Source: Bacteroidota bacterium (lineage in GTDB: Bacteria > Bacteroidota > Bacteroidia > Bacteroidales > FEN-979). From it: a stretch of 64,000 nucleotides of DNA. This document shows positions 1-46,969 of the stretch, piece after piece. The notes beneath the pieces are model-generated. The model did no database searches. It was not told the origin of the DNA and saw only the letters and a list, made by a program, of their open reading frames with translations. The DNA lies in contig VGGL01000002.1 of the NCBI GenBank assembly GCA_016868575.1, positions 1,703-65,702 on the forward strand. The letters are read 5' to 3'. How positions within the stretch are numbered: the stretch's first letter is position 1; each line of letters opens with the position of its first letter. The translations under genes and the position numbers were made by a program.

Positions 1-3000
1 CGTTAGGAAGCGTCACCGTTCAGAATATCAATAGAACAAAGTGTTATCTGGGACATAGTGACTGGCCAGGCGAAGCGAATTTTACGGGGCAGATGGATGA
101 AGTGAGTATCTGGAACGTTGCCCGAACGGCAGCGCAGATCAGATCCGACATGAGCAATACCCTCGCCGGCAATGAAAGCGGTTTACTGGCTTATTATAAC
201 TTCGATGAAGGCACTGCGGGCGGCAACAATGTCAATATCACCGCACTGTTGGATAAAACCGGAAACTACAACGGTATCCTGAGATACTTTGTAAAAACCA
301 ACGGCAATACAACCTCGAATTTTATCACCGGCACGGCAATGACCCCTTATGCTGAAACTTCCCTTACGGCAACCAGCGGCGGAACGGCAAACGGATTGAA
401 CCAGGCCGTATTCATTGCAACCGATGCGGTGGTTACGGGAAGTTCCACGCTTAACGGAGCCAATGTTCAGATTACCAATTTCGTAAGCAGTCAGGACCAG
501 CTTGGCATCAATGGCAGTACCGGCGGCACAACGAACGGGATCACCTATTCGTTCAATGCAACCACAGGAATATTGGCGCTGACGGGTTTTGCTTCTCCTG
601 CCAACTATCAGACGGTATTACGTCTTCTTACCTATAAAAATACTTCGGCCAATCCGACGACGACAGCCCGTAATGTTGCCATCAGCCTGGGAACCGCAAA
701 GTTTAACTATCAGAATGGCCATTTCTACCAGTATGTTTCGGGAAGTTACACAGCCACCGCCTCACTTACCGCTGCATCTAATACATATTATCTGGGAAGG
801 CAAGGTTACCTGGTGACCATCACCTCGGCTAACGAAAACACCCTGGTCGCATCCATTTCTTCCGGAAATACCTGGATGGCAGCAAGTGATCAGCCGGTGA
901 CAGACTGGAAATGGATCGCGGGACCTGAAAACGGAACCCAATTCTGGGAGGGGTATAATCCGGGATCTTCCTATAATGGCGGATACGCGAACTGGTATAG
1001 TGGTGAACCCAATAATGGCGTCGGGGGATATTATGTATATCTCTGGACCTCCCATTGGCCATACTGGGATGATACACAGGGAAGCTCGTTAATGAATTAC
1101 GTAGCAGAATACGGGGGTATGGCAGGCGATCCGACGCTGCCCATTTCCGCCGGTGTGACCGTAAATTTCAATACCCAATACTCCCTCACAGCCACCGTTG
1201 GCGGCAGCACATCGGCAGTGAATACGCTTGTTTATATTGCACAGGATGCAGTGGTCAATGCATGGACGGTCAACTATGCCAATGTTCAGATCACAAACTT
1301 TGTAAGCGGTCAGGACCAGCTTGGGATCGACGGCGCCACAAGCGGAACCATAAACGGTATTGCCTATTCCTTCAATTCCTCAACAGGAATTCTGGCATTG
1401 ACAAACACCGCATCGGCAGCCAATTATCAGGCAACCTTACGTTTGGTAACGTATAAAAATGTCAGCAATTCGCCAAACACTACCACCCGTGCAATCAGCA
1501 TGAGTTTAGGACACTTTTATGAGTACATTTCCGGTGCAATCAACTGGACCAATGCAAACACAGCAGCCGCTGCAAGGACATACTTCGGCTTGCCGGGTTA
1601 TCTCGCCACGATAACATCTGCCACAGAAAACGCAACCTGTCAATCAACTGCATCGGGTAACAATGCATGGATAGGCGCCAGCGATGCAGCTTCGGAAGGC
1701 GTCTGGAGGTGGGTCACAGGTCCGGAAGCAGGCATACAGTTCTGGCAAGGCAACTGGACCGGAAATCCGGTAAACGGTATGTATAGTAACTGGAATTCCG
1801 GAGAACCAAATAATAGTGGTGGTGTTGAACATTATGGACATATCTGGAATACCGGTACCTGGAATGATTACCTTGGCGGTACAAACACCATATCGGGATA
1901 TCTGGCAGAATATGGCGGTATGCCGGGCGATCCGGCTCCGGGTATTTTTGCCAATGGAAATGTTACCCTTGGTTATTCGCAGAGCTGTGCCGGCAATGCC
2001 CTGGCATTCGATGGCGGAGCCAATTATGTGTCATTGCCTGCGATCAATTTTAATTCCACCGGTTTGACGGTAGAAGGCTGGATGCGCTGGAATGTGGTGC
2101 CCGGAAACTGGATGCGCTTCTTTGATTTCGGGAACGGTCAGCAAAATAACAACATACTTGTCACCCGCGAGACAGGCACCAATGACCTGATATTTGATAT
2201 TTATAACGGCGCGACGCAGCAACGTGCCCAGGCTGACAATATCATTCCGGTCGGACAGTTTATCCACATTGCAGCGGTTGTTGAACCCGGCGCCCCCAGC
2301 ACCATGAAACTTTATGTGAACGGAGAACTTAAGGCCACAACCACGGGAGTGACGGTACAGAACATCAACAGAACCAATTGTTATTTAGGTCATAGCAATT
2401 GGGCGACGGAGCCCAACCTGAACGGACAGATGGATGAAGTCTCCATCTGGAACACCGCCCGCACACTCACCCAGATCCAATCGGATATGAATACCCCGTT
2501 GACCGGCAGCGAAGCCGGCTTAATGGCGTACTATAATTTCGACCAGGGAACAGCCGGTGGCGACAATACCTCCATCACTACCTTATTTGATATAAAGGGC
2601 CATTACAACGGCGGTAACATTACCAGCTTTGTGAGAACGAACGGCAACATCACTTCCAACTTTATCACTTCATCCATTGGCACTGTTCCTACGTTGGCTC
2701 CAAGTACCGTTTCAAATATTGCCTATACCTCTGCTACCGTTAGCAGCAATATTACAGACAAAGGCTGGGGAACTGTTACCGTTCGAGGGGTTTGCTACAA
2801 CACCACGGGCACACCCACAATTGCCGACGATAAAGTGAGTGAAACCGGTAATTTCGGAACCGGACCCTTTTCTATGAACCTGATTAACCTGGTAACCGGA
2901 GTTACTTATTATGCACGCGCTTATGCTTCCAACTCCTGCAATACCAGTTATGGCGCTCAAATCATGTTTATTCCTGATTATACTGACCTGGTATGGACAG

Positions 3001-4478
3001 GCGCATTAACTTCCGACTGGAATACGGCCGGGAACTGGGATCCGAATGAGGTCCCGACAATCGGGGATAATGTTACTATCCCCAATACAGGCGTCGTCAA
3101 TGAGCCTGTTGTAAACGAGGCTCCTGCGACACCTGCCGTCTGCCATAGTCTGAGTATCGGGTGGACAAGGACCTTTACCGTTGCCTCCAGCAAAGCGCTG
3201 ACAGTTGATGGAGATCTGACCAATTCCGGAACCGCTGCTTCACTTATCATTGAGAACGGCGCTTCGCTGATCACCCATGGAACTGTGACCGGTAGCGCTA
3301 CAGTGGTCAGCGGCATCGCTGCGAATGACTGGCATTTGATCTCACCTCCCATTTCTGACGCGTTATCAGGTCTGGTTACCGGCGATTACTTACAGGAATT
3401 CAGCGAAGCCACCAACAATTACTCAGATATTATCCCTGTTGATATTCCGCTGCTTCCCATGACCGGCTATGCCCTATGGGGCGGAGTCGCAGGGCTCAAT
3501 GTAAACTATACCGGTGCGCTGAACAACGGACCGATCGGTTCGGATGACAACCTGGCACGGACCAACCAGGGGTGGAACCTGGTCGGTAACCCCTATTCTT
3601 CTTCGCTTGACTGGGATGCATCATCGGGATGGACAAAAACCAATCTCAACAATGCAATCTATATCCATGTGAATGCTTCTACCTGGGCAAGCTATGTAGA
3701 TGGCGTAGGTGTCAATGGAGGAACCCGGTATATTGCCCCCTGTCAGGGTTTCTTTGTCAGGGCATCCTCTTCCGGTTTCGCTACCCTGAAAACGGATAAC
3801 AATACCCGTGTTCACAACAACACCCCATTCTTTAAAGATGCTGTCAGCAACCTTGTCAGGCTGGAACTGTCGGGCAGCAATGTGAAAGATGAAATAGTTG
3901 TTCGCGTTAAGCCACAATCAACAACCGGCTTCGACAGCGACTGTGATGCCTACAAGCTGTTTGCCGATGAAGTGAATGCTGCGCAGCTTTATGCTGTAGG
4001 TAGTGAGCTTTTATCGATCAATGCCATTCCGGAAGCCAAGCCTGTGACGGTCGGCGTCAGAAGCACCCTGCCCGGAGGAACCTATACCATTTCAGCTACC
4101 GAGATCAACAACATCGGGCTTTTGAAGCTGGAAGACAAGAAGACCCAGACTTTCAACGATCTTACAGCGCATGCTTATACCTTCACAACCCAGCCGGGGG
4201 ATGAAGAGACACGGTTTGTCCTGCACTTTACCACCCTGGATGTCCCTGTTTTGGAAGACCAATCCGACATTCATATTTACAGTGACGGAAGCAGCATCTG
4301 CATTGACCAGAGCCTCACAACGAACGGTAAAGTCTTTGTGTATGATCTTTCCGGCAGGCAGTTGATCCAATCGGATATCTCCTGGGGCATGAACCGGATT
4401 GCGGTTCAGGGTAAAGGAATTTACCTGGTCAAGGTGATTGCTGGAGAACAGGTCTCGGTAAAGAAGGTTCTTTTCTGA
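1..4478 (+). CDS. Large T9SS-secreted surface/adhesin-like protein, N-terminus off-window. Domain order: LamG, then (repeat module + C-type lectin domain) x2, LamG, Fn3-like, beta-rich region, Por/T9SS C-terminal sorting domain
   Basis: Frame 3 is open from nt 3. It reads LGSVTVQNINRTKCYLGHSDW..GQMDEVSIWN, duplicating the internal GVTVQNINRTNCYLGHSNW..GQMDEVSIWN, so the CDS continues upstream of the listed Met at 93. It has LamG-like motifs twice, CTLD motifs twice (W.W..GPE..QFW...SGEPNN), and a C-terminal ...GIYLVKVIAGEQVSVKKVLF tail typical of T9SS CTDs. Confidence 0.85.
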   Translation, partial: LGSVTVQNINRTKCYLGHSDWPGEANFTGQMDEVSIWNVARTAAQIRSDMSNTLAGNESGLLAYYNFDEGTAGGNNVNITALLDKTGNYNGILRYFVKTNGNTTSNFITGTAMTPYAETSLTATSGGTANGLNQAVFIATDAVVTGSSTLNGANVQITNFVSSQDQLGINGSTGGTTNGITYSFNATTGILALTGFASPANYQTVLRLLTYKNTSANPTTTARNVAISLGTAKFNYQNGHFYQYVSGSYTATASLTAASNTYYLGRQGYLVTITSANENTLVASISSGNTWMAASDQPVTDWKWIAGPENGTQFWEGYNPGSSYNGGYANWYSGEPNNGVGGYYVYLWTSHWPYWDDTQGSSLMNYVAEYGGMAGDPTLPISAGVTVNFNTQYSLTATVGGSTSAVNTLVYIAQDAVVNAWTVNYANVQITNFVSGQDQLGIDGATSGTINGIAYSFNSSTGILALTNTASAANYQATLRLVTYKNVSNSPNTTTRAISMSLGHFYEYISGAINWTNANTAAAARTYFGLPGYLATITSATENATCQSTASGNNAWIGASDAASEGVWRWVTGPEAGIQFWQGNWTGNPVNGMYSNWNSGEPNNSGGVEHYGHIWNTGTWNDYLGGTNTISGYLAEYGGMPGDPAPGIFANGNVTLGYSQSCAGNALAFDGGANYVSLPAINFNSTGLTVEGWMRWNVVPGNWMRFFDFGNGQQNNNILVTRETGTNDLIFDIYNGATQQRAQADNIIPVGQFIHIAAVVEPGAPSTMKLYVNGELKATTTGVTVQNINRTNCYLGHSNWATEPNLNGQMDEVSIWNTARTLTQIQSDMNTPLTGSEAGLMAYYNFDQGTAGGDNTSITTLFDIKGHYNGGNITSFVRTNGNITSNFITSSIGTVPTLAPSTVSNIAYTSATVSSNITDKGWGTVTVRGVCYNTTGTPTIADDKVSETGNFGTGPFSMNLINLVTGVTYYARAYASNSCNTSYGAQIMFIPDYTDLVWTGALTSDWNTAGNWDPNEVPTIGDNVTIPNTGVVNEPVVNEAPATPAVCHSLSIGWTRTFTVASSKALTVDGDLTNSGTAASLIIENGASLITHGTVTGSATVVSGIAANDWHLISPPISDALSGLVTGDYLQEFSEATNNYSDIIPVDIPLLPMTGYALWGGVAGLNVNYTGALNNGPIGSDDNLARTNQGWNLVGNPYSSSLDWDASSGWTKTNLNNAIYIHVNASTWASYVDGVGVNGGTRYIAPCQGFFVRASSSGFATLKTDNNTRVHNNTPFFKDAVSNLVRLELSGSNVKDEIVVRVKPQSTTGFDSDCDAYKLFADEVNAAQLYAVGSELLSINAIPEAKPVTVGVRSTLPGGTYTISATEINNIGLLKLEDKKTQTFNDLTAHAYTFTTQPGDEETRFVLHFTTLDVPVLEDQSDIHIYSDGSSICIDQSLTTNGKVFVYDLSGRQLIQSDISWGMNRIAVQGKGIYLVKVIAGEQVSVKKVLF

Positions 4479-5016: not shown

Positions 5017-5610
5017 ATGAATCCAATTTTCCGTGCATTGATTCCTCCTACTCGCTGGCGCAGGCCTGTGGTTGTGGCTTTGGGTATTATCGCCGGTCTT
5101 AGCCTGTTTCTTTTCTATATTTCAAACGCTGCTTCTTACCTGTCGGATAACCCCAAGACCTGCACCAACTGCCATGTGATGAATCCGCAGTTTGCCACCT
5201 GGCAGCACAGTTCCCACCGGGAGGTGACGAATTGCAACGATTGCCATGTGCCCCATGACAATGTCGTCCGGAAGTACTTCTTCAAAACCCAAGACGGGCT
5301 ACGGCATGCTACTATTTTCACGCTTCGGACAGAGCCTGATGTGATCATGATCAAAGAGATGGGGCAGCGTGTGGTTCATGAGAATTGCATCAGATGTCAC
5401 TTGCAAGTACTGGAAAACCCTGAAGAGGTTGAAGAATCTGGCGAAGAGGAAGAAGCGGAAGGGGAAGTAGAATGGATGCAGCGGAAATGCTGGGAATGTC
5501 ACCGGGAGGCACCACATGGAACGGTCAAGGGACTGGCCTCTGTGCCCCATGCCATGATCACGCCGCAGAAGCCTCCGGTGCCTGAATGGTTAAAGAAATT
5601 AGTAAAATGA
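5017..5610 (+). CDS. nrfH: NrfH, membrane-anchored tetraheme cytochrome c (NapC/NirT family) quinol dehydrogenase
   Basis: N-terminal TM helix and four CxxCH motifs (CTNCH, CNDCH, CIRCH, CWECH). It lies directly upstream of nrfA. Confidence 0.9.
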   Translation: MNPIFRALIPPTRWRRPVVVALGIIAGLSLFLFYISNAASYLSDNPKTCTNCHVMNPQFATWQHSSHREVTNCNDCHVPHDNVVRKYFFKTQDGLRHATIFTLRTEPDVIMIKEMGQRVVHENCIRCHLQVLENPEEVEESGEEEEAEGEVEWMQRKCWECHREAPHGTVKGLASVPHAMITPQKPPVPEWLKKLVK

Positions 5611-5700: not shown

Positions 5701-7173
5701 ATGGAAAACACAAAGAAACGCAAGCCCTGGGTAAACTGGGCCCTGTTCATTGGCACCATGGTGCTGGTCTTTCTGCTGGGATTACTGGCTTCTTCAGTCA
5801 TCCAGCGAAAAGCAGAAAAGGAATATGTGTTCAAACCTACGGTCAAGATCTCCGAATGGGAGGCCAGGAATGAAGTGTGGGGGATGAATTTTCCGCGGGA
5901 ATTTCAGTCCTATATGGGCACTGCTGACACCTCATTCCGGAGCCTTTACAACGGGAATGCTTTCATCGACATGCTGGAGGAGGAGCCCCGGCTGGTGATC
6001 CTTTGGGCAGGCTATGCTTTTTCAAAGGATTATAATCAACCCCGGGGTCATTTTTATGCAGTGGAGGATGTCTATAACTCGCTACGGACAGGCGCCCCCA
6101 AAGGTCCGGATGACGGGCCCCAACCCAATACCTGCTGGACATGCAAGAGTCCCGATGTTCCCCGGATGATGGCTAAACTGGGCGTGGCCGGTTTTTACAA
6201 AGGAAAGTGGGCTTCCCTTGGGAGTGAAATCATCAATCCCATTGGTTGCGGCGATTGCCACGATCCGGAGACCATGGATCTGCGGATCACCCGGCCGGCA
6301 TTGCTCGAAGCATTCACTGCCATGGGAAAGGATCTGTCGAAAGCCACCCACCAGGAGATGCGGTCGCTCGTTTGCGCCCAGTGCCATGTGGAATATTATT
6401 TTGATAAGAAACATCCCGGGGCAGAAGATATCAGCTACCTCACCTTTCCCTGGAAGGATGGAACTTCTGCCGACAGCATGCTGGCCTATTACAATAAAGT
6501 CGGGCATGTGGACTTTGTTCATGCCTTCAGCAAAGCCCCCATCCTGAAAGCACAACATCCCGATTATGAGGCATTCCTGACCGGGGTACATTACGACCGG
6601 GGTGTTGCCTGTGCCGACTGCCATATGCCCTACATGAAAGAAGGAGGACAGAAGTTTACCAGCCACCGGGTTACGAGTCCTTTGGCATATATCAATCAGA
6701 CTTGCCAGGTTTGTCACCGGGAGAGCGAGGAGAAGCTGATTGAAAATGTCTATCAGCGGCAAAGAAAAGTCAAGGAGATACGGGATCAGTCGGAAGTGTT
6801 GCTGGTTCGTGCACACATGGAAGCCAAGGCCGCCTGGGATGCCGGCGCCACGGAACCAGAGATGCAACCGGCCCTCGAACATATCCGCAACGCACAGTGG
6901 TACTGGGATTATGCTGCAGCAGGACACGGAAACTCCTTCCACGCACCCCTGGAGATGGCACGGATCATTGCCAAATCCATTGATGAAACGTCATCAGCGA
7001 GGCTCCTGATCGCCCGGATATTACAAAAACTGAAAAGGAATGCCGATGTTCCTTACCCAGACATTACAACCAAGGAAAAAGCTCAGAAATTGATCGGCCT
7101 GGACACCAAAACGCTTTCTCAGGAGAAAAAAGAATTTCTCAATACAACTGTCAAGTCGTGGACTGGACGATAA
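5701..7173 (+). CDS. nrfA: NrfA, pentaheme cytochrome c nitrite reductase (ammonia-forming)
   Basis: Diagnostic CWTCK (CxxCK) active-site heme motif plus four CxxCH motifs (CGDCH, CAQCH, CADCH, CQVCH). N-terminal signal anchor. Confidence 0.95.
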   Translation: MENTKKRKPWVNWALFIGTMVLVFLLGLLASSVIQRKAEKEYVFKPTVKISEWEARNEVWGMNFPREFQSYMGTADTSFRSLYNGNAFIDMLEEEPRLVILWAGYAFSKDYNQPRGHFYAVEDVYNSLRTGAPKGPDDGPQPNTCWTCKSPDVPRMMAKLGVAGFYKGKWASLGSEIINPIGCGDCHDPETMDLRITRPALLEAFTAMGKDLSKATHQEMRSLVCAQCHVEYYFDKKHPGAEDISYLTFPWKDGTSADSMLAYYNKVGHVDFVHAFSKAPILKAQHPDYEAFLTGVHYDRGVACADCHMPYMKEGGQKFTSHRVTSPLAYINQTCQVCHRESEEKLIENVYQRQRKVKEIRDQSEVLLVRAHMEAKAAWDAGATEPEMQPALEHIRNAQWYWDYAAAGHGNSFHAPLEMARIIAKSIDETSSARLLIARILQKLKRNADVPYPDITTKEKAQKLIGLDTKTLSQEKKEFLNTTVKSWTGR

Positions 7174-7550: not shown

Positions 7551-7865
7551 ATGGTTAATCCTGTTATTCATATTGATAGCGCCATCCGGACTTCAACTCT
7601 TTTTGATGCCCGGCAGATGTTTTCTTCTGAAAGATGTGAGGTCATTCATCTTTTACTCCTGCCCGGAGAGAAAATGGAATTACATGTTCAGCCTTTCGAT
7701 GTTGTTTTTTTCATTTTGGAAGGCAGTGGAACCCTGCATCTTGAATCAGAAGCTTCGGTTTTCTCAGAAAACACTTGCATTTCCATTAAGGCCGGTGTGA
7801 TGAGAGCCTGGAAAAACCACACATCGTCTCCATTGCGGTTGTTGGTTATCAAGTTATTATCCTGA
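7551..7865 (+). CDS. Cupin domain protein
   Basis: 104 aa with a cupin_2-like core (LLPGEKMELHVQPFDVVFFILEGSGTL...IKAGVMRAW). Confidence 0.7.
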   Translation: MVNPVIHIDSAIRTSTLFDARQMFSSERCEVIHLLLLPGEKMELHVQPFDVVFFILEGSGTLHLESEASVFSENTCISIKAGVMRAWKNHTSSPLRLLVIKLLS

Positions 7866-39751: not shown

Positions 39752-39758
39752 GTCGTCG

Positions 39759-39830
39759 TAGCCCCGCCGGGAATCGAACCTGGATCTGAAGTTTAGGAAA
39801 CGTCTGTTCTATCCGTTGAACTACAGGGCC
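39759..39830 (-). tRNA. tRNA-Arg (anticodon CCU), with two non-Watson-Crick stem pairs
   Basis: GGCCCTG TA GTTC AACGGATA GAAC A GACGT TTCCTAA ACTTC AGAT CCAGG TTCGATT CCCGG CGGGGCT A. The cloverleaf folds, but there is a C-U pair in the anticodon stem, an A-C pair in the T stem, and two G-U pairs in the acceptor stem. Confidence 0.7.
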
Positions 39831-39933: not shown

Positions 39934-41565
39934 TTACTTCCCTTCCGCCGGCAGCAGATCTTTCGTCTTCAGCTTTGCCGGCTTGAATATGCCAAGCGCC
40001 CCGTTAATTCCAACGCTCATGATGATATTATAGAGGAAAGCAAGAAATGCCAACAGCAGAAATACCCCGCAAATGCCAGCAAGGATCATGTAAATATTGA
40101 ATTCTCCATCGACATAGATTGCACGCCTCAGCATACCTTTCAAACCAGCCATACCCATAAAAGCCCCCATGCCGATCCCCCCAAGAAGATGTGCCCAAAA
40201 GTGGAAATTGGCGAGTTTCTGACTATACCATTTCGCCCCGTTGGTAAGGATAGGGAATAAGAAGTATATCGCAGCATAAAGAGTCATGGTCAAGCCGACC
40301 AGCACGGCAACATGCACATGTGGACCTACTACCCATTGGGTGTTGTGAAGAATCCGGTTCAACCCGAGATCAGCCTGCAAAATTCCACAGGGAACAGCTA
40401 GGGCAAACCCCAGTAAGCCCCCAAGTAGGAACTTCAATGGGTTGGTCATCTTTAAAGGCCGGGCACTCCATAAAGTAACCAGGGTAATGAAAAACGCCAA
40501 CCCCTGGGTGACTAGCTCGAAAGCAGTAACCATTTCGCCGGAGACAACCTTCAGGATGCCCGGTTGTGCCTGATCCGATAACAGGTGATGAGACCAAACG
40601 GTCCATGAAACAACCAGTTCCACAAACAAAGCTGCACGCGCCCAATTCTCCATAAATAACTTCTTTCCGGTGATAAGCGTGGCAAGAAGATACCAGGCAC
40701 CGGCCACGAAAATCAGCACCGCACCGTCTGCGATCAGATCCAACCCCCACCAAAACCAGTTCTTGTATAGCAATGCATCAATGGCCGTAGATTTCAGGCT
40801 AATGCCTCCAATTTCCCAAAGCATGTAAATAAGAATAAGTACGCCGGTAAAAGTGATGATCAGCGCATTGAGCAGAATATCGACCGTCCCTCTTGCGATA
40901 GCCGCCACCGGAAGTGGTACCAGGTGTTCTTTTTTGTTCTTTCGGAAAATATTCTGTGAACCACTTATCCCAAGCGCCGATATCAATAACGCCCCGGCAG
41001 GTTGTTTATCCCACCCATCAGGTGTGTAGACGATGGTTTTAAAAATATTCACCACAAAAATCAGCGTGCCAACCATGATCAGCGCAATTCCAAAGATGAA
41101 AACCGCTCCGCCAACTGCACTGAACTGGGTGAAATCTGCCGGTAAAGGCCAGTAGAGGGTGTATAAGGGGGCATAGTGTGAGAGGAAACCGGCAGACCAC
41201 ATCACAATAGTTCCAATGGTAATCAGAAAGAAAGTCCAGTTGGCCGCTTTGATACTCCACAACGGCTTCTTCATCAGAAAAGGAACCAGGAATAAAAACG
41301 CACCAAAAACAATCATATATGTAGACCCAAAAATGCCGACCAGCGGATGGGCGGTCATCATGGCAAAGAAATGTTTCTCGTTCATTATCGGAATGGGCGT
41401 GATCTCATAGATCCGCATGATCATCCCTTCAATGGCCGCAAACGCATAGTAAACAAGTCCAACCACCACAAACCGGAGGGTGATCTTCTGCATAGGGGTA
41501 AGTGTATCTGCCTTGAATATCCCCTGTTCTCCATTTAGCAAAGTATTTATGTAATTCATATTCAT
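39934..41565 (-). CDS. Heme-copper oxidase superfamily subunit I homologue with a non-canonical active site (putative gNOR-like NO reductase)
   Basis: 12-TM protein. It has H73 (TAHPLVG), H326-H327 (VWSHHLL) and H416/H418 (GPHVHV). Helix VI reads WFWWGLDLIADG instead of W(F/W)xGHP(E/I)VY. No His occurs between residues 254 and 325. Confidence 0.8.
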   Translation of the reverse strand: MNMNYINTLLNGEQGIFKADTLTPMQKITLRFVVVGLVYYAFAAIEGMIMRIYEITPIPIMNEKHFFAMMTAHPLVGIFGSTYMIVFGAFLFLVPFLMKKPLWSIKAANWTFFLITIGTIVMWSAGFLSHYAPLYTLYWPLPADFTQFSAVGGAVFIFGIALIMVGTLIFVVNIFKTIVYTPDGWDKQPAGALLISALGISGSQNIFRKNKKEHLVPLPVAAIARGTVDILLNALIITFTGVLILIYMLWEIGGISLKSTAIDALLYKNWFWWGLDLIADGAVLIFVAGAWYLLATLITGKKLFMENWARAALFVELVVSWTVWSHHLLSDQAQPGILKVVSGEMVTAFELVTQGLAFFITLVTLWSARPLKMTNPLKFLLGGLLGFALAVPCGILQADLGLNRILHNTQWVVGPHVHVAVLVGLTMTLYAAIYFLFPILTNGAKWYSQKLANFHFWAHLLGGIGMGAFMGMAGLKGMLRRAIYVDGEFNIYMILAGICGVFLLLAFLAFLYNIIMSVGINGALGIFKPAKLKTKDLLPAEGK

Positions 41566-41594
41566 ATACTTTTAATCGTTCATAATTCTTTTGA

Positions 41595-42143
41595 TCACTC
41601 TGTGACTTCCACAGCATCTTTAACAACCATGTATGCACCTTTGGGACCTGAATACTCCGTTGAACGGATGCTATAAATCCCGGGTTCCCCGAATTGCCAA
41701 AGGATATCGTTGATATGTCCCGGGAGAACCTGCATTTGGAGTACCATGGTATGATCCGGGCGGAAGAGTCCGAAACCATACGTGAGATCGGTTGAAGTAA
41801 CCTTGAAAAGGACTTTTTCGCTGGTTTTTATGATCATCTTTTCAGCAGGCAGCTGAAATTGATGGTTGCTAACCGTGATCTCGAAGACCTTATCCGGTTT
41901 TATATCCGCCCGGTTCAGGTCCATCGGTGACCACGGAATCGTGTTATAGGTGAAGAGATGCAGCGTAACGCCCAGAACTGCCAGCATGATCACCCATGTG
42001 TAGAATATGGATGGTTTAACCAGTCCACCTCTTCCCTGACGTGTAATCCGGTAACTGAACCACGCAACCAGGGAAATAATAAGAATGGAGTAAGTGGTGT
42101 AAACCACGATTAATCCATTCAGTACGTCATTTGAATCTGCCAT
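41595..42143 (-). CDS. Heme-copper oxidase subunit II-like cupredoxin protein lacking CuA ligands
   Basis: Two N-terminal TM helices plus a cupredoxin domain. The site aligning to CxExCGxxHxxM reads STEYSGPKGAYM, and the upstream His is replaced (TYGFG). It is preceded by an AGGAGGT Shine-Dalgarno sequence. Confidence 0.75.
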   Translation of the reverse strand: MADSNDVLNGLIVVYTTYSILIISLVAWFSYRITRQGRGGLVKPSIFYTWVIMLAVLGVTLHLFTYNTIPWSPMDLNRADIKPDKVFEITVSNHQFQLPAEKMIIKTSEKVLFKVTSTDLTYGFGLFRPDHTMVLQMQVLPGHINDILWQFGEPGIYSIRSTEYSGPKGAYMVVKDAVEVTE

Positions 42144-42176
42144 AGAGACCTCCTTTTGTATTTATTAAATGGTGAA

Positions 42177-42608
42177 TTATTTATTACTCATTTCCGTTTG
42201 AATATTTCCAGGTGATTTTGCCAGATCTTGTATGGTTGTGGAGGAAGAAGTATTCAGCATGGTTTTTCTGATCTCCCCCCAGACATCGTGCATGGCACAT
42301 ACAGGGGAGAGCCGGCAGTCGGTAACACCCAGAATGCATGCATTGAATGATTCTAGTCCTTCAACGGCCTCAATAACGCCAGAAAGAAATATTTGATTGG
42401 CCGGACGGGCCAGGATAAACCCGCCACTTCTTCCACGTTTCCCCTTGATAAACCCTTGCTTCGCCAAGGTCGTCATCAACCGTTTCAGGTAACGCTCTTT
42501 GATCTTGAGTTGTCGGAACAGGATTGTCGCGGTAGTGGCCTCCTTTTCATTTCTTGCCATGGCTTGGAGAATCCTGATAGCGTAAGATGTTGTTTTTGAG
42601 ATAATCAT
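42177..42608 (-). CDS. Rrf2 family transcriptional regulator (IscR/NsrR-like, probable Fe-S cluster ligands)
   Basis: N-terminal wHTH (TSYAIRIL...) and C91-x6-C98-x5-C104-x2-H107, like the IscR ligand set. Confidence 0.85.
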   Translation of the reverse strand: MIISKTTSYAIRILQAMARNEKEATTATILFRQLKIKERYLKRLMTTLAKQGFIKGKRGRSGGFILARPANQIFLSGVIEAVEGLESFNACILGVTDCRLSPVCAMHDVWGEIRKTMLNTSSSTTIQDLAKSPGNIQTEMSNK

Positions 42609-42611
42609 AAA

Positions 42612-42629
42612 TAATACCTTCAGGTATTA
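42612..42629. promoter_or_regulatory. Perfect 8+8 palindrome TAATACCT-tc-AGGTATTA (candidate Rrf2 operator)
   Basis: It lies between the -7 box (42638-42645) and the Rrf2 ATG (42608), at about the transcription start. Confidence 0.5.
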
Positions 42630-42637
42630 ATATTTGA

Positions 42638-42645
42638 CAAATATA
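42638..42645 (-). promoter_or_regulatory. -7 promoter box TATATTTG for the Rrf2/oxidase-like operon
   Basis: The reverse complement of caaatata matches exactly, 30 nt upstream of the ATG at 42608. Confidence 0.45.
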
Positions 42646-42687: not shown

Positions 42688-43164
42688 TTATTTAATTGCT
42701 CTCAGGGTTGCACGCTGAAAACCATCAGCCGCCATCTTAGGATACAAATTCTCGATCTCCACCCTGCATGTCCCTTGCTTTTCCATGTACAGCTTTTTTT
42801 GCAATACCAGCTCCAGCTTGCATTGCTCCCCTTCGCACTTCCGGATTTGCTGCCTGACCTCCCGGCCCGAAAAGAACAATTCATGTTCCTGAATCCGCTC
42901 TTCCCCGTCCGGGGTAAGGATGATTACATGGATCGGCAGAATATCCATCTCGATTTCCCTCAAATAGTCTAACTCGAGAATCAGGTCATAGGAACCGTCT
43001 CCCTGAATTGGAATCTCAAAATTCAATTTGCGGAACCGATCCCAGGATCCCTGCTCAAAAACAACCTCTTGTCTGAATACCTCCTTTCTGCCACATCCTG
43101 AAAAGAGCAGGAGGAATAGCACCCCTATCGAGAGAAATGAATATCTGTGCATGACTTTTTTCAT
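42688..43164 (-). CDS. Lipoprotein (tentatively GldH-like)
   Basis: MKKVMHRYSFLSIGVLFLLLFSGC lipobox. Size and pattern (W..F..L.F......YDL.L.L...) are reminiscent of GldH but unverified. The start overlaps the kinase stop (ATGA). Confidence 0.6.
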   Translation of the reverse strand: MKKVMHRYSFLSIGVLFLLLFSGCGRKEVFRQEVVFEQGSWDRFRKLNFEIPIQGDGSYDLILELDYLREIEMDILPIHVIILTPDGEERIQEHELFFSGREVRQQIRKCEGEQCKLELVLQKKLYMEKQGTCRVEIENLYPKMAADGFQRATLRAIK

Positions 43165-46100
43165 TGGTTTTTCTTTTCCTGGTACGCCGGAATTCTAACG
43201 GCAAACACACATCCCCGGGAAGATGATTCTTCCAGGGAAACCGTTCCTCCCATACTGTGTAAAATACTCCTCACAATGGCAAGGCCCAAACCGGTGCCCC
43301 CTGATTTAGTGGTAAAGTTTGGCATAAAGACTTTTGTCATCAACGCTGCGGGCACACCGGGTCCATTATCCCGGATTCTGATCTCATGCATCGCCGACCC
43401 TGGGATCATTAGGATCCGGATGTGTCCGTCAGGCTGACCGGTCAAAGCTTCCAGAGAATTGTTAATCAGGTTATTGAGTACCCGCATCACCTGGTTACGG
43501 TCAGCATAAATCCACGCCGGAATATCTGTTTCTTTACTGAATTCCAGCCGAATGTGCTTGAGCCCTGTATATAAATCCAGCGTTTGACGTATCACCTCAT
43601 CCAGCAAAATGGGCTGATTTTTGGTCTGGGGCATTTTGGCAAAGTCAGAAAATTCTCCGGCGATAGCGGTCAGGGAATCGATCTGTTCAATGATGGTACA
43701 AGTGAGTTTTTCCAACTTTTCAGGATAGCCCGGATCGTTTTCCTGCCAAGCTTTTCGCAAGAGCTGGACACTGAGTTTCATCGGTGTCAGCGGGTTCTTG
43801 ATCTCATGGGCCACCTGCATGGCCATCTCCCGCCAGGCACTTTCCCGTTCCGATGCCGCTAACCGTTCAGCGCTTAACGTCAATTCATCCACCAGCTTGT
43901 TGTACTCAGTAATCAGATTCCCAATCTCATCCGGATGTTTCCACTCAATTTTTTCATTCACATTGCCCAGCCGGAAAGAACCGATCTTCTCCTGCAGTAT
44001 TCGCAAGGGCCTTGTGAGATACCTGGAAATCAGCAATGTGAGAAACAACACCATTCCCAGAAGAATGAGATAGACATTGATGTAGGCTACCAGGAATACA
44101 AAGACCTCTTTCCGCATTTGGTCCTGACGGGCAAAATAGGGAAGGTTCAGGTAAGCGATCACATTCCCGTCGTTGTTGATCAGGGGAAGGTATGCCGACA
44201 AATAGGCATATCTCCCAATTTGTTCCTCCTGAATGTATTGCATTTTCTTCTGATCTCGTAAATGACCCAAAGCCACCGGATCAAGAAGCCCTGAAATCAA
44301 TCCCTCATCAAAGATCTGTTGCCGTGAAGAGGCCAGCAAATATCCCCCTGGATTATACAAGTTTATATCGGAGAAAAAGACATTGGAAAACTTGACCAGT
44401 AACCCTTCCAGGTAATCGTGCATCGAAGGATCCAGCACCTGTTTGTCAGCCAGTTTGTGCTGCAGTTCAATGAGGATGGAATGGGATTTTTCCGATAAAT
44501 TCTCTTTGTTCTTGTTTTGATTGACCTGGTAAAAATAAACGATTGAGCCGATCCCGATCAGGAAAAAAGAGAAGATCATCACCCCCGTTAAGACGGCCTG
44601 GAAACGTTCACGAAAAGTGAGTTGAACCGGTAGTTTTACGATCTGCCTGAACCGGATCAAAAGCAGGAATAGAAATGAGAGCAAGGCATAGAAAACAGAC
44701 AGATAGGAAAAGGGAGCCGCTACCGACATCAGGCTCTCTTTCTTCCTGCTAACCAGTACCTCGGTATTTCCAAAACGGGTATAAAAATGCCGGACATCAT
44801 CCAATGTGAAAACACCGGAATTTCCTTCAGGCAAAGGATATACGGAACATTTATAAGCATAGGCCACCAACCCGTACCGGCGCATCAGCTCACCGTCTTT
44901 GTAAACCGCGTAAGCGTAATTGCCAATATCCGGGATAAAAGCCTGCCGGCGATCCACCAGGAGTTCGGGGTAGCCCAGATCTTTGGGAGTAAACCGGTAA
45001 TTCAATTCCAGGATGAGGGTAACTTTTCCACCTCCAAAACGGAACATGCTCAGGTAGTTGATCTGCCCATTCCCGTAATCCATGAAATAGAGGTCTTCCG
45101 TGGCAGTCTTTTCCCCGAACTGTCCAACCAGGGAATTGAAATAATCTTCACAGGGAACCAGGGTATCAAGAGGGCGGATGTTCAGCAGCTCATTGGGATT
45201 GCACAAGGTTGCGGTGATATCGTAGCGGTTCCAGGTGCCGAAAAAATAGTTCTCATTAAGGTATTCCTGTAGGTTTTCACGGTTGAAGTTGGTCTCCTTT
45301 AAAGCAAACTTCATAATCCTCGAAGAATCATTCAGCAACTGTTCTTTCAGGTCAGTGAACATCAGTTCAGTCAGTGGATCCCGTTCGGCCATCACCTTGA
45401 GCGCCAATAATTCCTGTCTTTCTCGCTCCTCCTTGTTCAGACTGCCCCGCATCACAAGCGTTGAAAACAGGGCAAACAGCAAGATATAAAACCCCGATTG
45501 CGATAAAGAAATGGATTGCCCCTTTTGCCTCATAAACATCAGGGCAAACAACATGAAAAACAAACAGAAGACCGAAGGAATAAGACTGTCAGAAACATCA
45601 TCATCAATGAAATAAGCGGATAATATCGCAGAAACCAGGATAAGCAGGATGATCAAATAGGGATTGTGAGAAAGATGCTCAATCCAGCGGATCAACTTTA
45701 ATCCAACCAGCACAAATGATAAAAGAAGAAGGCCAATCACTGCGTAGGTAATGGCGGTAAGCCAGGAAACAGCAGGGATATCGTTGAGGTTTAGTGTTAT
45801 TCCGGAATTCAACACAAGTGCCTGGATCAACCAGGTAAGTCCGTGGAAAGTGATGAAAAGGAACAGGACCAAAATCCAGGTGATGATAACCTCCCGGGCT
45901 TTATTTTTCAACTTTCCGGGATCATTTCGGGTCCACCGGAAAAAGGCATAACAGAAGGCTAAAAGGAACAAGACGTGTAGCAAAAGATCGCCGAGAGAAG
46001 GTATCCATGCGGAGATTGCAATGCCTGCCGGAGAAAACAAGGAGCTGTCAAACAAGCCAGCCGGAAATTTCAGCCACGCCAGAATCAACCGGAGAATCAC

Positions 46101-46844
46101 AAGGTCCAGAAAAAACATCAACAGAAACAGGGATGTGCGGGAGAAGTACTTTCTGAATTTGATATAAAGCTGGTAGCCGGCTGAAAGCAATAGGATCAAC
46201 CCCAACAGATCGAGGAGAGCCATGAATGTCAACACCCGGGATGGGGTTTCCGGTTTCCGGGGTAAGGAATAGGAAAAAAGAAAGCCGCCTGTTGCACTGA
46301 GAATATTGTATTTCCCCCTTTCTCCGGAAATTTCAATCCCTGACACATCAGGTAATCCTCTTCCCATTTTCGTTTCCAGAAAGTCATTTTGATATCTGTA
46401 TTGTTGCCTGATCTGATACAAGCCCAGGAATGTTTCTGAACCGTTTTTCAACACCTCCTGCCGATACACGCCATTACGGTAAAAGGTAACCGGCAGCAGC
46501 AAGGAGGTATCGGAAATGACCAGCGGGACGGGAACCGAGGCGCTGTTCCAGGCTTGCAGGCTATCGTCCCGGTAAAGAAATAGCATGATCTCCCTGTCAT
46601 CCCTGTCGGAATTTTCGAATATCGGGGAGATCGTTTTGATACCCTTTTCATCAGCCAAAGAAGAAATCTCAATGAGCCGTTCATGCAGCATCCGGTCATA
46701 TTCCAGGATTGCTTGCTGAAGCCGCTGATGATAATGTACCGGATCGGCTGTTTTCCGTGAAAGATAACCTGTCAGATAAGAGGAAAAGAAGAGGACTGCT
46801 GCAAGAAGAAACAGCCAAAAGACGGTATGACGGATGAGATGCAT
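43161..46844 (-). CDS. Very large polytopic sensor histidine kinase (about 1227 aa)
   Basis: N-terminal TM, a multi-TM block, a second extracytoplasmic region, HAMP-like linker, H-box AHEIKNPLTPM, and HATPase (NNSLEA, DNGPGV, GTGLGL). The start at 46844 is chosen because the longer ORF runs into tRNA-Val. Confidence 0.85.
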   Translation of the reverse strand: MHLIRHTVFWLFLLAAVLFFSSYLTGYLSRKTADPVHYHQRLQQAILEYDRMLHERLIEISSLADEKGIKTISPIFENSDRDDREIMLFLYRDDSLQAWNSASVPVPLVISDTSLLLPVTFYRNGVYRQEVLKNGSETFLGLYQIRQQYRYQNDFLETKMGRGLPDVSGIEISGERGKYNILSATGGFLFSYSLPRKPETPSRVLTFMALLDLLGLILLLSAGYQLYIKFRKYFSRTSLFLLMFFLDLVILRLILAWLKFPAGLFDSSLFSPAGIAISAWIPSLGDLLLHVLFLLAFCYAFFRWTRNDPGKLKNKAREVIITWILVLFLFITFHGLTWLIQALVLNSGITLNLNDIPAVSWLTAITYAVIGLLLLSFVLVGLKLIRWIEHLSHNPYLIILLILVSAILSAYFIDDDVSDSLIPSVFCLFFMLFALMFMRQKGQSISLSQSGFYILLFALFSTLVMRGSLNKEERERQELLALKVMAERDPLTELMFTDLKEQLLNDSSRIMKFALKETNFNRENLQEYLNENYFFGTWNRYDITATLCNPNELLNIRPLDTLVPCEDYFNSLVGQFGEKTATEDLYFMDYGNGQINYLSMFRFGGGKVTLILELNYRFTPKDLGYPELLVDRRQAFIPDIGNYAYAVYKDGELMRRYGLVAYAYKCSVYPLPEGNSGVFTLDDVRHFYTRFGNTEVLVSRKKESLMSVAAPFSYLSVFYALLSFLFLLLIRFRQIVKLPVQLTFRERFQAVLTGVMIFSFFLIGIGSIVYFYQVNQNKNKENLSEKSHSILIELQHKLADKQVLDPSMHDYLEGLLVKFSNVFFSDINLYNPGGYLLASSRQQIFDEGLISGLLDPVALGHLRDQKKMQYIQEEQIGRYAYLSAYLPLINNDGNVIAYLNLPYFARQDQMRKEVFVFLVAYINVYLILLGMVLFLTLLISRYLTRPLRILQEKIGSFRLGNVNEKIEWKHPDEIGNLITEYNKLVDELTLSAERLAASERESAWREMAMQVAHEIKNPLTPMKLSVQLLRKAWQENDPGYPEKLEKLTCTIIEQIDSLTAIAGEFSDFAKMPQTKNQPILLDEVIRQTLDLYTGLKHIRLEFSKETDIPAWIYADRNQVMRVLNNLINNSLEALTGQPDGHIRILMIPGSAMHEIRIRDNGPGVPAALMTKVFMPNFTTKSGGTGLGLAIVRSILHSMGGTVSLEESSSRGCVFAVRIPAYQEKKNQ

Positions 46845-46894
46845 AGGATTCCTTCGGTACGGGCTGCCATTTCTCTTGCTTCCTCCCCCGGGAG

Positions 46895-46969
46895 TGGGAC
46901 GTGCAGGATTCGAACCAGCGACCTCATGCGTGTGAAGCATGCGCTCTGAACCGACTGAGCTAACGTCCC
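46895..46969 (-). tRNA. tRNA-Val (anticodon CAC)
   Basis: GGGACGT TA GCTC AGTCGGTTCA GAGC G CATGC TTCACAC GCATG AGGTC GCTGG TTCGAAT CCTGC ACGTCCC A. There is one U-U pair in the T stem. Confidence 0.85.

Follow-up and report, generated by a model that had tools for sequence, protein, structure and literature searches.

Here we describe a three-gene operon encoding an Rrf2-family regulator and both subunits of a heme-copper-oxidase homologue, located at positions 39,934 to 42,645 of a 64,000-nucleotide stretch of Bacteroidota DNA (GenBank assembly GCA_016868575.1, contig VGGL01000002.1, positions 1,703 to 65,702 of the forward strand; the whole stretch is hereafter called the window). The operon is best explained as a norGH-type nitric oxide (NO) reductase operon under an NO-responsive Rrf2 repressor, a reading to which we assign a probability of roughly 0.6. 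This reading is carried by an active site in which two invariant aspartates appear to stand in place of a histidine ligand of CuB and of the redox-active tyrosine of oxygen reductases, by a cupredoxin subunit that has lost its CuA site, by probable membership of the gNOR family, and by an operator conserved upstream of the regulator gene. An earlier note, made from the letters of the window alone, had interpreted the operon in the same way; its observations on the sequence were confirmed and its core interpretation is supported, while its views on foreign origin, novelty and linkage to nitrite reductase fared less well, as set out below.

Genes of the gNOR family are counted as a source of nitrous oxide (N2O) in metagenome surveys, and they are very common in Bacteroidota and Ignavibacteriota; a motif scan placed relatives of subunit I in at least 588 GTDB species genomes overall. 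If it is true that the enzyme reduces NO, many nitrite-ammonifying anaerobes would count as N2O producers. A putative iron-sulfur (Fe-S) Rrf2 repressor with a defined operator offers a regulatory handle on gNOR function in Bacteroidota and Ignavibacteriota, and the regulator circuit and the neighbouring gene sets together make this function experimentally approachable. Homologues in the cultured Nitrosophilus alvini and Persephonella atlantica, and in other Persephonella genomes, are possible material for purification.

Gene order and conservation

The operon was compared with a set of 83 related loci, for which a genome scan gave the best 80 relatives, all of them Bacteroidota-like metagenome-assembled genomes. 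Subunit II lies directly upstream of subunit I in 80 of the 83 loci and an Rrf2 orthologue lies upstream of subunit II in 57, with subunit I being 75-83% identical across the set. Judged from the intactness of the pair and from this identity, the two gNOR genes are under purifying selection. No match was obtained when plasmids were searched with subunit I by tblastn, and none of the three operon proteins reaches an equivalog cut-off in NCBIfam.

Active site of subunit I

All of the ligand motifs reported in the earlier note were found at their positions in subunit I, with TAHPLVG starting at residue 71 (H73), FWWGLDLIAD at 271 (D276, D280), VWSHHLL at 323 (H326/H327), and GPHVHV at 414 (H416/H418). 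The claim that residues 254 to 325 contain no histidine holds over an even longer interval: the full sequence has histidines at 65, 73, 130, 214, 326, 327, 407, 416, 418, 455, and 459, and none from 215 to 325. Tyrosines between residues 251 and 340 are limited to Y267 and Y292.

In a MAFFT alignment with distant homologues that carry the GHPVVY motif of oxygen reductases, W272-x3-D276-x3-D280 falls under W-x3-His-x3-Tyr. The MAFFT, HMMER, and hhalign alignments all match W272 to the conserved Trp that precedes the CuB His by four residues. An AlphaFold2 model of subunit I, built on 65 diverse homologues (predicted local distance difference test score [pLDDT] 87.2, predicted template modelling score [pTM] 0.89), has an unbroken helix from residue 264 to 299, and in Foldseek it resembles bo3/aa3 subunit I with a template modelling (TM) score of approximately 0.77 (top match 7n9z_F). 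With W272 anchored alike by three aligners and no break in the model helix, the ungapped register, in which D276 takes the position of the CuB His and D280 that of the cross-linked Tyr, is the most parsimonious reading, as the earlier note had proposed; the gapped HMMER and hhalign alignments of helix VI, which avoid the Asp-His pairing, were rejected on the same grounds.

Conservation of these residues was assessed in 340 full-length homologues from Bacteria and Archaea. The residues H73, W272, D276, D280, H326, H327, H407, H416, and H418 are 100% invariant, as are H455, E350, R480, and R481; E46 is conserved in all homologues except one (339/340). The helix-VI motif GLD(L/M)(I/V)ADG is likewise invariant. 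The A, B, and C families of O2 reductases have three CuB histidines and a His-Tyr cofactor, whereas here an invariant Asp occupies both positions, and an O2-reductase reading of subunit I was rejected on this ligand set and its invariance.

A search of the PDB with the single sequence of subunit I returned one weak cbb3 match only, whereas the family profile (HMMER) matched A-family chains with E = 5e-27 and ba3 with E = 1e-16. A distant homologue, P0240 (462 aa), has the helix-VI sequence WVALRFYLQG, with neither His nor Asp, and HWQH in place of the HH pair; it is a heme-copper-oxidase relative from another family with a reworked metal site.

Loss of CuA in subunit II

The Pfam COX2 match of subunit II is weak (19.4 bits, below cut-off), and a profile of 32 orthologues has as its best solved match the CuA domains of Thermus thermophilus ba3 (E = 2e-6 to 1e-4). 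In the profile alignment, the ba3 residues H114, C149, Q151, C153, H157, and M160 correspond to Y122, S161, E163, S165, G169, and M172, respectively, such that both Cys of the CuA loop are replaced by Ser and the His by Gly, with the Met retained. No cysteine occurs anywhere in the 182-aa protein. These results agree with the layout proposed earlier, namely two hydrophobic helices and a cupredoxin domain without CuA, in which the upstream His has become Tyr. Among the 32 aligned orthologues STEYSG does not vary and at least 90% have R160, and the remnant loop STEYSGPKGAYM of the window protein is identical in Persephonella and Nitrosophilus. From these alignments the CuA site is judged to be lost and its replacement loop to be under strong constraint.

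Assignment to the gNOR family

According to Murali et al. (PNAS 2024; PMC11214002), gNOR is unique among heme-copper families in having an active-site His replaced, by Asp, and its cupredoxin subunit, without CuA residues, is possibly quinol-oxidising; the family was found in Bacteria and Archaea, is enriched in sulfidic habitats, and was present in 156 genomes of an earlier, smaller GTDB release. A table in PMC8756737 gives "D" at the Tyr position for gNOR, and the same paper cites Sievert et al. (2008) for Sulfurimonas, Sulfurovum, and Persephonella as the first reported carriers. The genes have been named norGH (PMC8906906), and those of Candidatus Methylomirabilis oxyfera are DAMO_1118-1119 (PMC6094997).

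Every published trait that could be examined here was found in the window operon: a heme-copper-oxidase fold with both heme sites, Asp for His, Asp in place of the Tyr with no evident migrated Tyr, a subunit II of cupredoxin fold in which the CuA ligands are missing, and relationship to a Persephonella member. The last of these, P0477, has 62% identity and 79% positives with the window subunit I over 544 aa and the same FWWGLDLIADG motif. Since the defining traits match and the identity to the Persephonella protein is high, the operon is very probably a gNOR of the norGH type, and the gNOR-like assignment of the earlier note stands. Named homologues were found in Bacteroidota, Ignavibacteriota, Chloroflexota, Actinobacteria, Nitrospirota, Nitrospinota, Aquificota (Persephonella), Campylobacterota (Nitrosophilus alvini), Thermoprotei, and Methanomethylicia.

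The novelty of the finding had been overrated. The family has been known since 2008, curated hidden Markov models for it exist, and it is routinely counted in metagenome surveys; the family itself, its Asp-for-His site, and its CuA-less subunit II are all published, and the window operon is a further member. Added by the present analysis are an Rrf2/operator circuit that is conserved among related loci, a further operator copy in front of subunit II, and sets of genes that recur beside the module; of these, the regulatory part goes beyond the published work consulted.

In public databases, homologues are mostly named "cbb3-type cytochrome c oxidase subunit I" (NCBI) or "cytochrome c oxidase subunit 1" (JGI), both of which are misleading for a protein that has neither the full set of CuB histidines nor the Tyr.

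Regulator, operator, and promoter

The Rrf2 protein carries the putative Fe-S ligands C91, C98, and C104, which are invariant in 58 of 58 orthologues, and H107, which is present in 57 of them, even though identity among the orthologues of related loci is only about 35-50%. Their spacing, C-x6-C-x5-C-x2-H, is one residue longer than in IscR, the additional residue lying between the first two Cys. In NCBIfam the protein scores above the cut-off of rrf2_super and does not reach the NsrR, IscR, RirA, or CymR equivalogs; scores, all below cut-off, are 67.6 bits for the SUF regulator, 63.0 for RirA, 61.8 for IscR (TIGR02010, cut-off 207.55, the Cys3-His pattern being present with one extra residue), and 48.3 for NsrR. 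Among solved structures, those most closely related to it are a generic Rrf2 protein, CymR, RsrR, and IscR.

A perfect palindrome, TAATACCT-N2-AGGTATTA, lies 3 nt upstream of the Rrf2 start codon. It is unique in the window even when up to 3 mismatches are allowed, although one or more such matches turned up in 15 of 100 shuffles; as the operator motif occurs only once in the window, nrfHA is not visibly part of the same regulon. Both the palindrome and the -7 box reported before the Rrf2 gene in the earlier note were found, and the regulator gene and its operator are conserved across dozens of species. In related loci, the core TAy-N6-rTA is located 6-10 nt (mostly 6-7) before the Rrf2 start codon in 35 of 53 cases (approximately 4% expected), its flanked form being AAATrmTAC-N6-GTAkyATTT, and TAnnTTTG occurs 36-40 nt before the start codon in 30 of 53 (1.3% expected). 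The association with an Rrf2 regulator is thus stronger than first read. With up to 2 mismatches allowed, 1.09 Mb of sequence from related loci contained 109 sites for AATRMTAY-N6-RTAKYATT; 66 of them immediately precede an operon gene, Rrf2 in 43 cases and subunit II in 23. A generic inverted-repeat score failed to distinguish the operator region from controls (5.68 versus 5.30), the DNA being AT-rich, whereas the motif-specific count told them apart.

The 23 related loci with a second operator copy carry it in the spacer between Rrf2 and subunit II, at a distance of 14-78 nt (mostly 20-40) from the subunit II start, as in L021 7367-7388 (a perfect palindrome, AATGCTACGTTTAGGTAGCATT), L052 7383-7404, and L081 7374-7395. 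This copy is present also at L053 and L081, loci in which no Rrf2 gene was detected, and is absent from the 33-nt Rrf2-subunit II spacer of the window.

On the strength of its conservation, the palindrome is regarded as a conserved operator and candidate Rrf2 site. From the positions of the -7 box and the operator, the predicted transcription start, some 20-25 nt before the Rrf2 start codon, falls within the latter, an arrangement typical of repressors, and the Rrf2 protein is predicted to be an autoregulated repressor of the operon.

Proposed function and alternative explanations

NO reduction is the probable physiological reaction of the enzyme. In the mechanism we propose, the low-spin heme of subunit I would be held by H73 and H418 and the high-spin heme by H416, and beside the latter a non-heme metal site would be formed by H326, H327, and the carboxylate of D276, with D280 one helical turn further on, where oxygen reductases have the redox-active Tyr. 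Such a site of two His and a carboxylate without Tyr would fit iron rather than copper, and would suit the two-electron reaction 2 NO + 2 e- + 2 H+ -> N2O + H2O, not the four-electron reduction of O2. Given that subunit II has lost every CuA ligand but Met, the enzyme most probably draws electrons directly from quinol in the membrane, as cytochrome bo3 does; in this phylum the quinol is menaquinol. A holo-dimer of the Rrf2 protein with a Cys3-His Fe-S site would occupy the palindrome and keep its own operon silent until NO damage or nitrosylation of the cluster released it. In a Bacteroidota host that ammonifies nitrite with NrfHA, the enzyme would likely serve to remove the NO that arises as a by-product of nitrite reduction. 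Gene context favours a link to nitrogen oxides: nrfHA is encoded in the window and is followed there by a gene related to a cupin found beside the module elsewhere, L001 has nrfHA and a NapH-like gene next to the gNOR pair, and about 10 related loci have a set of cupin, DUF438/hemerythrin/PAS, and DUF1858 genes.

Several points weigh against this interpretation. No biochemical assay of any gNOR was found in the literature searched, and according to 2026 reviews eNOR alone among the newer clades has measured NO-reductase activity. Gaps in helix VI are placed differently by HMMER (versus Bacillus subtilis aa3-600) and by hhalign (versus a small B-type profile), and with an alignment register that varies in this manner D276 is a putative metal ligand whose side-chain geometry is deduced. 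In the published superfamily tree gNOR branches with the B-family; the subunit II profile is closest to ba3, but the subunit I profile scores higher against A- than against B-family solved oxidases, and for subunit I the B-family affinity was not reproduced. Nor was the His-to-Glu heme ligand claimed for gNOR by one preprint seen, the heme His being invariant in the 340 homologues. With regard to the regulator, the NsrR assignment fails (NF008240, 48.3 bits versus a cut-off of 182), Streptomyces NsrR (5n07) matches most weakly among the solved structures (E = 8e-4), and the Cys3-His pattern resembles that of IscR, a sensor of Fe-S status. Finally, nrfHA directly adjoins the gNOR genes in just 1 of the 83 related loci, and YeeE/YedE (TsuA-like) transporter halves and rhodaneses adjoin them in approximately 13, an association that speaks for sulfur and not nitrogen chemistry.

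These neighbours raise the alternative that the operon encodes an active gNOR-family oxidoreductase whose substrate is not NO and which serves sulfide-rich, low-oxygen life, for example as a sulfide-tolerant quinol oxidase or peroxidase, or as a small-molecule reductase tied to the handling of sulfur compounds. The transporter halves recur with two rhodaneses and two unknown genes in two arrangements, gNOR is mainly from sulfidic habitats (PMC11214002), and the want of a gNOR assay in the literature searched favours this alternative as well. It is nonetheless unlikely: the Tyr needed for four-electron O2 reduction is absent from 340 of 340 members, sulfur genes of this kind are absent from the window, many loci with the sulfur link have the same upstream radical S-adenosylmethionine and pseudouridine-synthase genes and so represent few independent events, and three loci have the sulfur genes on one side and cupin/hemerythrin/DUF1858 genes on the other, which may reflect a shared stress island or inherited synteny. 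A further variant, distinctly unlikely, is that the two-His/two-Asp site catalyses another reaction tied to sulfur-rich anoxic life, with Rrf2 reporting that signal and not NO; the site could, for example, turn over a sulfur or sulfur-nitrogen species, or scavenge trace oxidants in a sulfide-insensitive way. Such a role would account for the sulfidic habitats, the repeated thiosulfate-transporter-like and rhodanese neighbours, and coexistence with other NO reductases (as in Methylomirabilis). The notion of a decayed, inactive oxidase, to which the absence of one CuB His, of the Tyr, and of the CuA ligands might point, is exceedingly improbable and was rejected on the ligand set and its constancy. 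The Asp substitutions do not indicate decay because the replacement residues are themselves 100% invariant in the 340 sequences from two domains of life; moreover, the gene pair is intact in 80 of the 83 loci, subunit I is about 80% conserved, and the operon has its own conserved regulator and operator.

A separate question, compatible with an NO-reducing enzyme, concerns the signal alone, and for NO in this role the odds appear about even. That the Rrf2 protein controls the operon and senses instead Fe-S or iron status (as IscR and RirA do) or oxygen and redox state (as RsrR does) is the less likely option. In its favour, the ligands follow the Cys3-His pattern of IscR, the SUF regulator, RirA, and IscR models all score above NsrR, albeit each below its cut-off, and the solved relatives (generic Rrf2, CymR, RsrR, IscR) are nearer than NsrR. 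Set against this, the regulator lies in the enzyme's own operon and its operator is found only before Rrf2 and subunit II, suggesting a local circuit like that of Streptomyces NsrR rather than a global Fe-S regulator, and all Fe-S Rrf2 clusters react with NO. On balance, we retain an NO-responsive norGH-type NO reductase operon as the best overall explanation.

Shine-Dalgarno sequence and origin of the operon

The AGGAGGT sequence described before subunit II is present, though its distance from the start codon is 4 nt, and the 5 nt given in the earlier note applies only if AGGAGG is taken as the core. It is the longest Shine-Dalgarno-like match among 45 gene starts of the window, 33 of which lack any, such that the stated rarity of these sequences is borne out. 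The hint of a foreign origin that was drawn from it is not supported. Recent acquisition as a foreign cassette is hardly likely, even though the strongest Shine-Dalgarno sequence of the window precedes subunit II, the module is flanked by different, unrelated genes in the window, L002, and L003, a tRNA-Arg(CCT) gene at 39758-39830 (minus strand) lies approximately 100 nt downstream of the subunit I stop codon, and subunit I sequences from Bacteroidales and Ignavibacteria bins share 75-83% identity. The G+C content of positions 40001-42000 (0.469) is inside the range of the window (0.436-0.505), the promoter has the native Bacteroidota -7 box, and a Shine-Dalgarno sequence of at least 5 nt is conserved before subunit II in 41 of 77 related loci, and the 8-mer AAGGAGGT is present in 19. 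A tRNA gene directly downstream of the module did not recur (0 of 60 related loci), and no integrase or repeat boundary was seen. Because the neighbours of the module differ between genomes, ancient cassette-like spread is plausible; recent acquisition is not indicated.

Coordinates and neighbouring genes

Coordinates of the operon genes, their control elements, and the codons of key residues are summarized in Table 1.

Table 1. Features of the gNOR operon, given as positions in the 64,000-nt window
Feature	Positions	Strand	Description or basis
Rrf2-family regulator gene	42177-42608	-	143 aa; first gene of operon; Pfam Rrf2 E = 1.7e-29
Subunit II gene (NorH-like)	41595-42143	-	182 aa; two N-terminal hydrophobic helices and cupredoxin domain, no CuA site
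Subunit I gene (NorG-like)	39934-41565	-	543 aa; heme-copper-oxidase fold; Pfam COX1 E = 2.3e-56
-7 promoter box TATATTTG (TAnnTTTG, Bacteroidota type)	42638-42645	-	read from sequence
Operator, family consensus AATRMTAY-N6-RTAKYATT	42610-42631	none	holds perfect inverted repeat 42612-42629
Shine-Dalgarno AGGAGGT of subunit II	42148-42154	-	read from sequence
CuA-loop remnant STEYSGPKGAYM, subunit II residues 161-172	41628-41663	-	alignment to ba3 CuA domain
Codons D276-L-I-A-D280, subunit I helix VI	40726-40740	-	MAFFT alignment; 340/340 invariant
Codons H326-H327, two retained putative ligands of non-heme metal	40585-40590	-	340/340 invariant
Codons H416-V-H418, helix X	40312-40320	-	H416, predicted high-spin heme proximal ligand; H418, one predicted low-spin heme ligand
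Codon H73, other predicted low-spin heme ligand, subunit I	41347-41349	-	invariant in 340 homologues

The nrfHA nitrite reductase genes, which the earlier note had placed about 34 kb from the operon, were found at 33-35 kb (nrfH 5017-5610; nrfA 5701-7173, with a CWTCK heme motif). Among the 83 related loci, their physical linkage to a gNOR pair was seen only in L001 (Ignavibacteriota), where nrfHA and a NapH-like gene are divergently adjacent to it. A set comprising cupin, DUF438/hemerythrin/PAS, and DUF1858 genes adjoins the module in approximately 10 related loci; the DUF438/hemerythrin/PAS_10 and DUF1858 genes are located at 9756-11627 in L001, at about 10100-11900 in L039, L041, L047, and L064, and also in L044, L038, L068, and L031. 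The DUF1858 gene is sometimes fused to Fer4 and DUF2249, and the hemerythrin part of the neighbouring protein has sub-threshold similarity to the Fe-S repair protein RIC/YtfE. None of the DUF438/hemerythrin, DUF1858, cupin, and unknown neighbouring genes received an informative name from NCBIfam. In the window, a cupin gene (7551-7865, plus strand, 104 aa) follows nrfA by approximately 380 nt, and its product is 32% identical (E = 5e-16) to the cupin encoded right after the gNOR genes in L039, L041, L064, L014, and L038. By this similarity, an uncharacterised cupin appears to be tied to both nitrite ammonification and gNOR.

The sulfur cluster consists of split YeeE/YedE genes, of the TsuA-like type that transports thiosulfate or selenium, two rhodaneses, and two genes without a Pfam match (177 aa and 355 aa, the latter with a weak NCBIfam YD-repeat match). 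It is downstream of subunit I in L019, L026, L033, L036, L059, L073, and L083, and upstream and inverted in L039, L041, and L064. Its position beside the module may relate to the reported sulfidic habitat.

Directly after subunit I, the loci of Persephonella (L084/L085, 8665-9255) and Nitrosophilus alvini (L086, 8705-9298) encode a protein of 196-197 aa without a Pfam match, with a charged N-terminal part and apparently two hydrophobic segments in the C-terminal half. No homologue was found in the window or the Bacteroidota loci, and the protein may be a lineage-specific third subunit or assembly factor.

Elsewhere in the window, tRNA-Val(CAC) (46894-46969, minus strand) overlaps the first codons of a listed 1259-aa histidine-kinase open reading frame (43161-46940; MLHTHEVAGSNPARPT...), and as it covers these codons the true start of the kinase should lie further downstream. 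Positions 93-4478 (plus strand) encode a 1461-aa secreted protein with C-type lectin and Laminin_G_3 domains and an internally duplicated N-terminal half, which is unrelated to the operon.

Comparison with known systems

Relative to cNOR and qNOR (NorBC, NorZ), the same reaction is proposed for the window enzyme, at a non-heme site with a carboxylate and no Tyr, and a quinol donor is proposed as in qNOR. However, FeB of cNOR/qNOR is held by three His and a Glu, whereas the window subunit I keeps two His, and the partner is a cupredoxin in place of a cytochrome c or a fused domain. The subunit I family profile had 55 PDB matches (E <= 0.001), none of them a cNOR or qNOR chain, and a cNOR/qNOR reading was rejected on the ligand set and its invariance.

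Escherichia coli cytochrome bo3 likewise has a cupredoxin subunit II without CuA, and the quinol donor it uses is the one proposed here; it keeps three CuB His and the cross-linked Tyr, reduces O2, and is only about 18% identical to the window subunit I. The T. thermophilus ba3 oxidase has one transmembrane helix in subunit II, in contrast to the two hydrophobic segments of the window protein, and receives its electrons from cytochrome c. The subunit I fold, the HH pair, the H-x-H motif, and the helix-VI spacing W-x3-(ligand)-x3-(Tyr position) are common to both enzymes, while His233 and Tyr237 of ba3 (PDB 1EHK, 1XME, 3S8F) correspond to D276 and D280, and the full CuA site of ba3 (H114, C149, C153, H157, M160) to Y122, S161, S165, G169, and M172.

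The Rrf2 protein shares with NsrR and IscR the winged-helix fold and three Cys in the C-terminal half, and with IscR a His at the position of His107; a palindromic operator over the promoter and autoregulation are also alike, being read here from sequence. It differs in scoring below every equivalog cut-off and in its C-x6-C-x5-C spacing, and we know of no described NsrR or IscR box that corresponds to AATRMTAY-N6-RTAKYATT.

The closest likeness is to gNOR (NorGH) itself, with which the operon shares the Asp substitutions, the CuA-less cupredoxin subunit, the two-gene core, and occurrence in Bacteria and Archaea. The gNOR loci of Persephonella and Nitrosophilus have no Rrf2 gene and instead carry the conserved gene for the 196-aa membrane protein downstream, whereas the Bacteroidota/Ignavibacteriota clade adds to the common core an Rrf2 gene, a conserved operator, and a strong Shine-Dalgarno sequence before subunit II.

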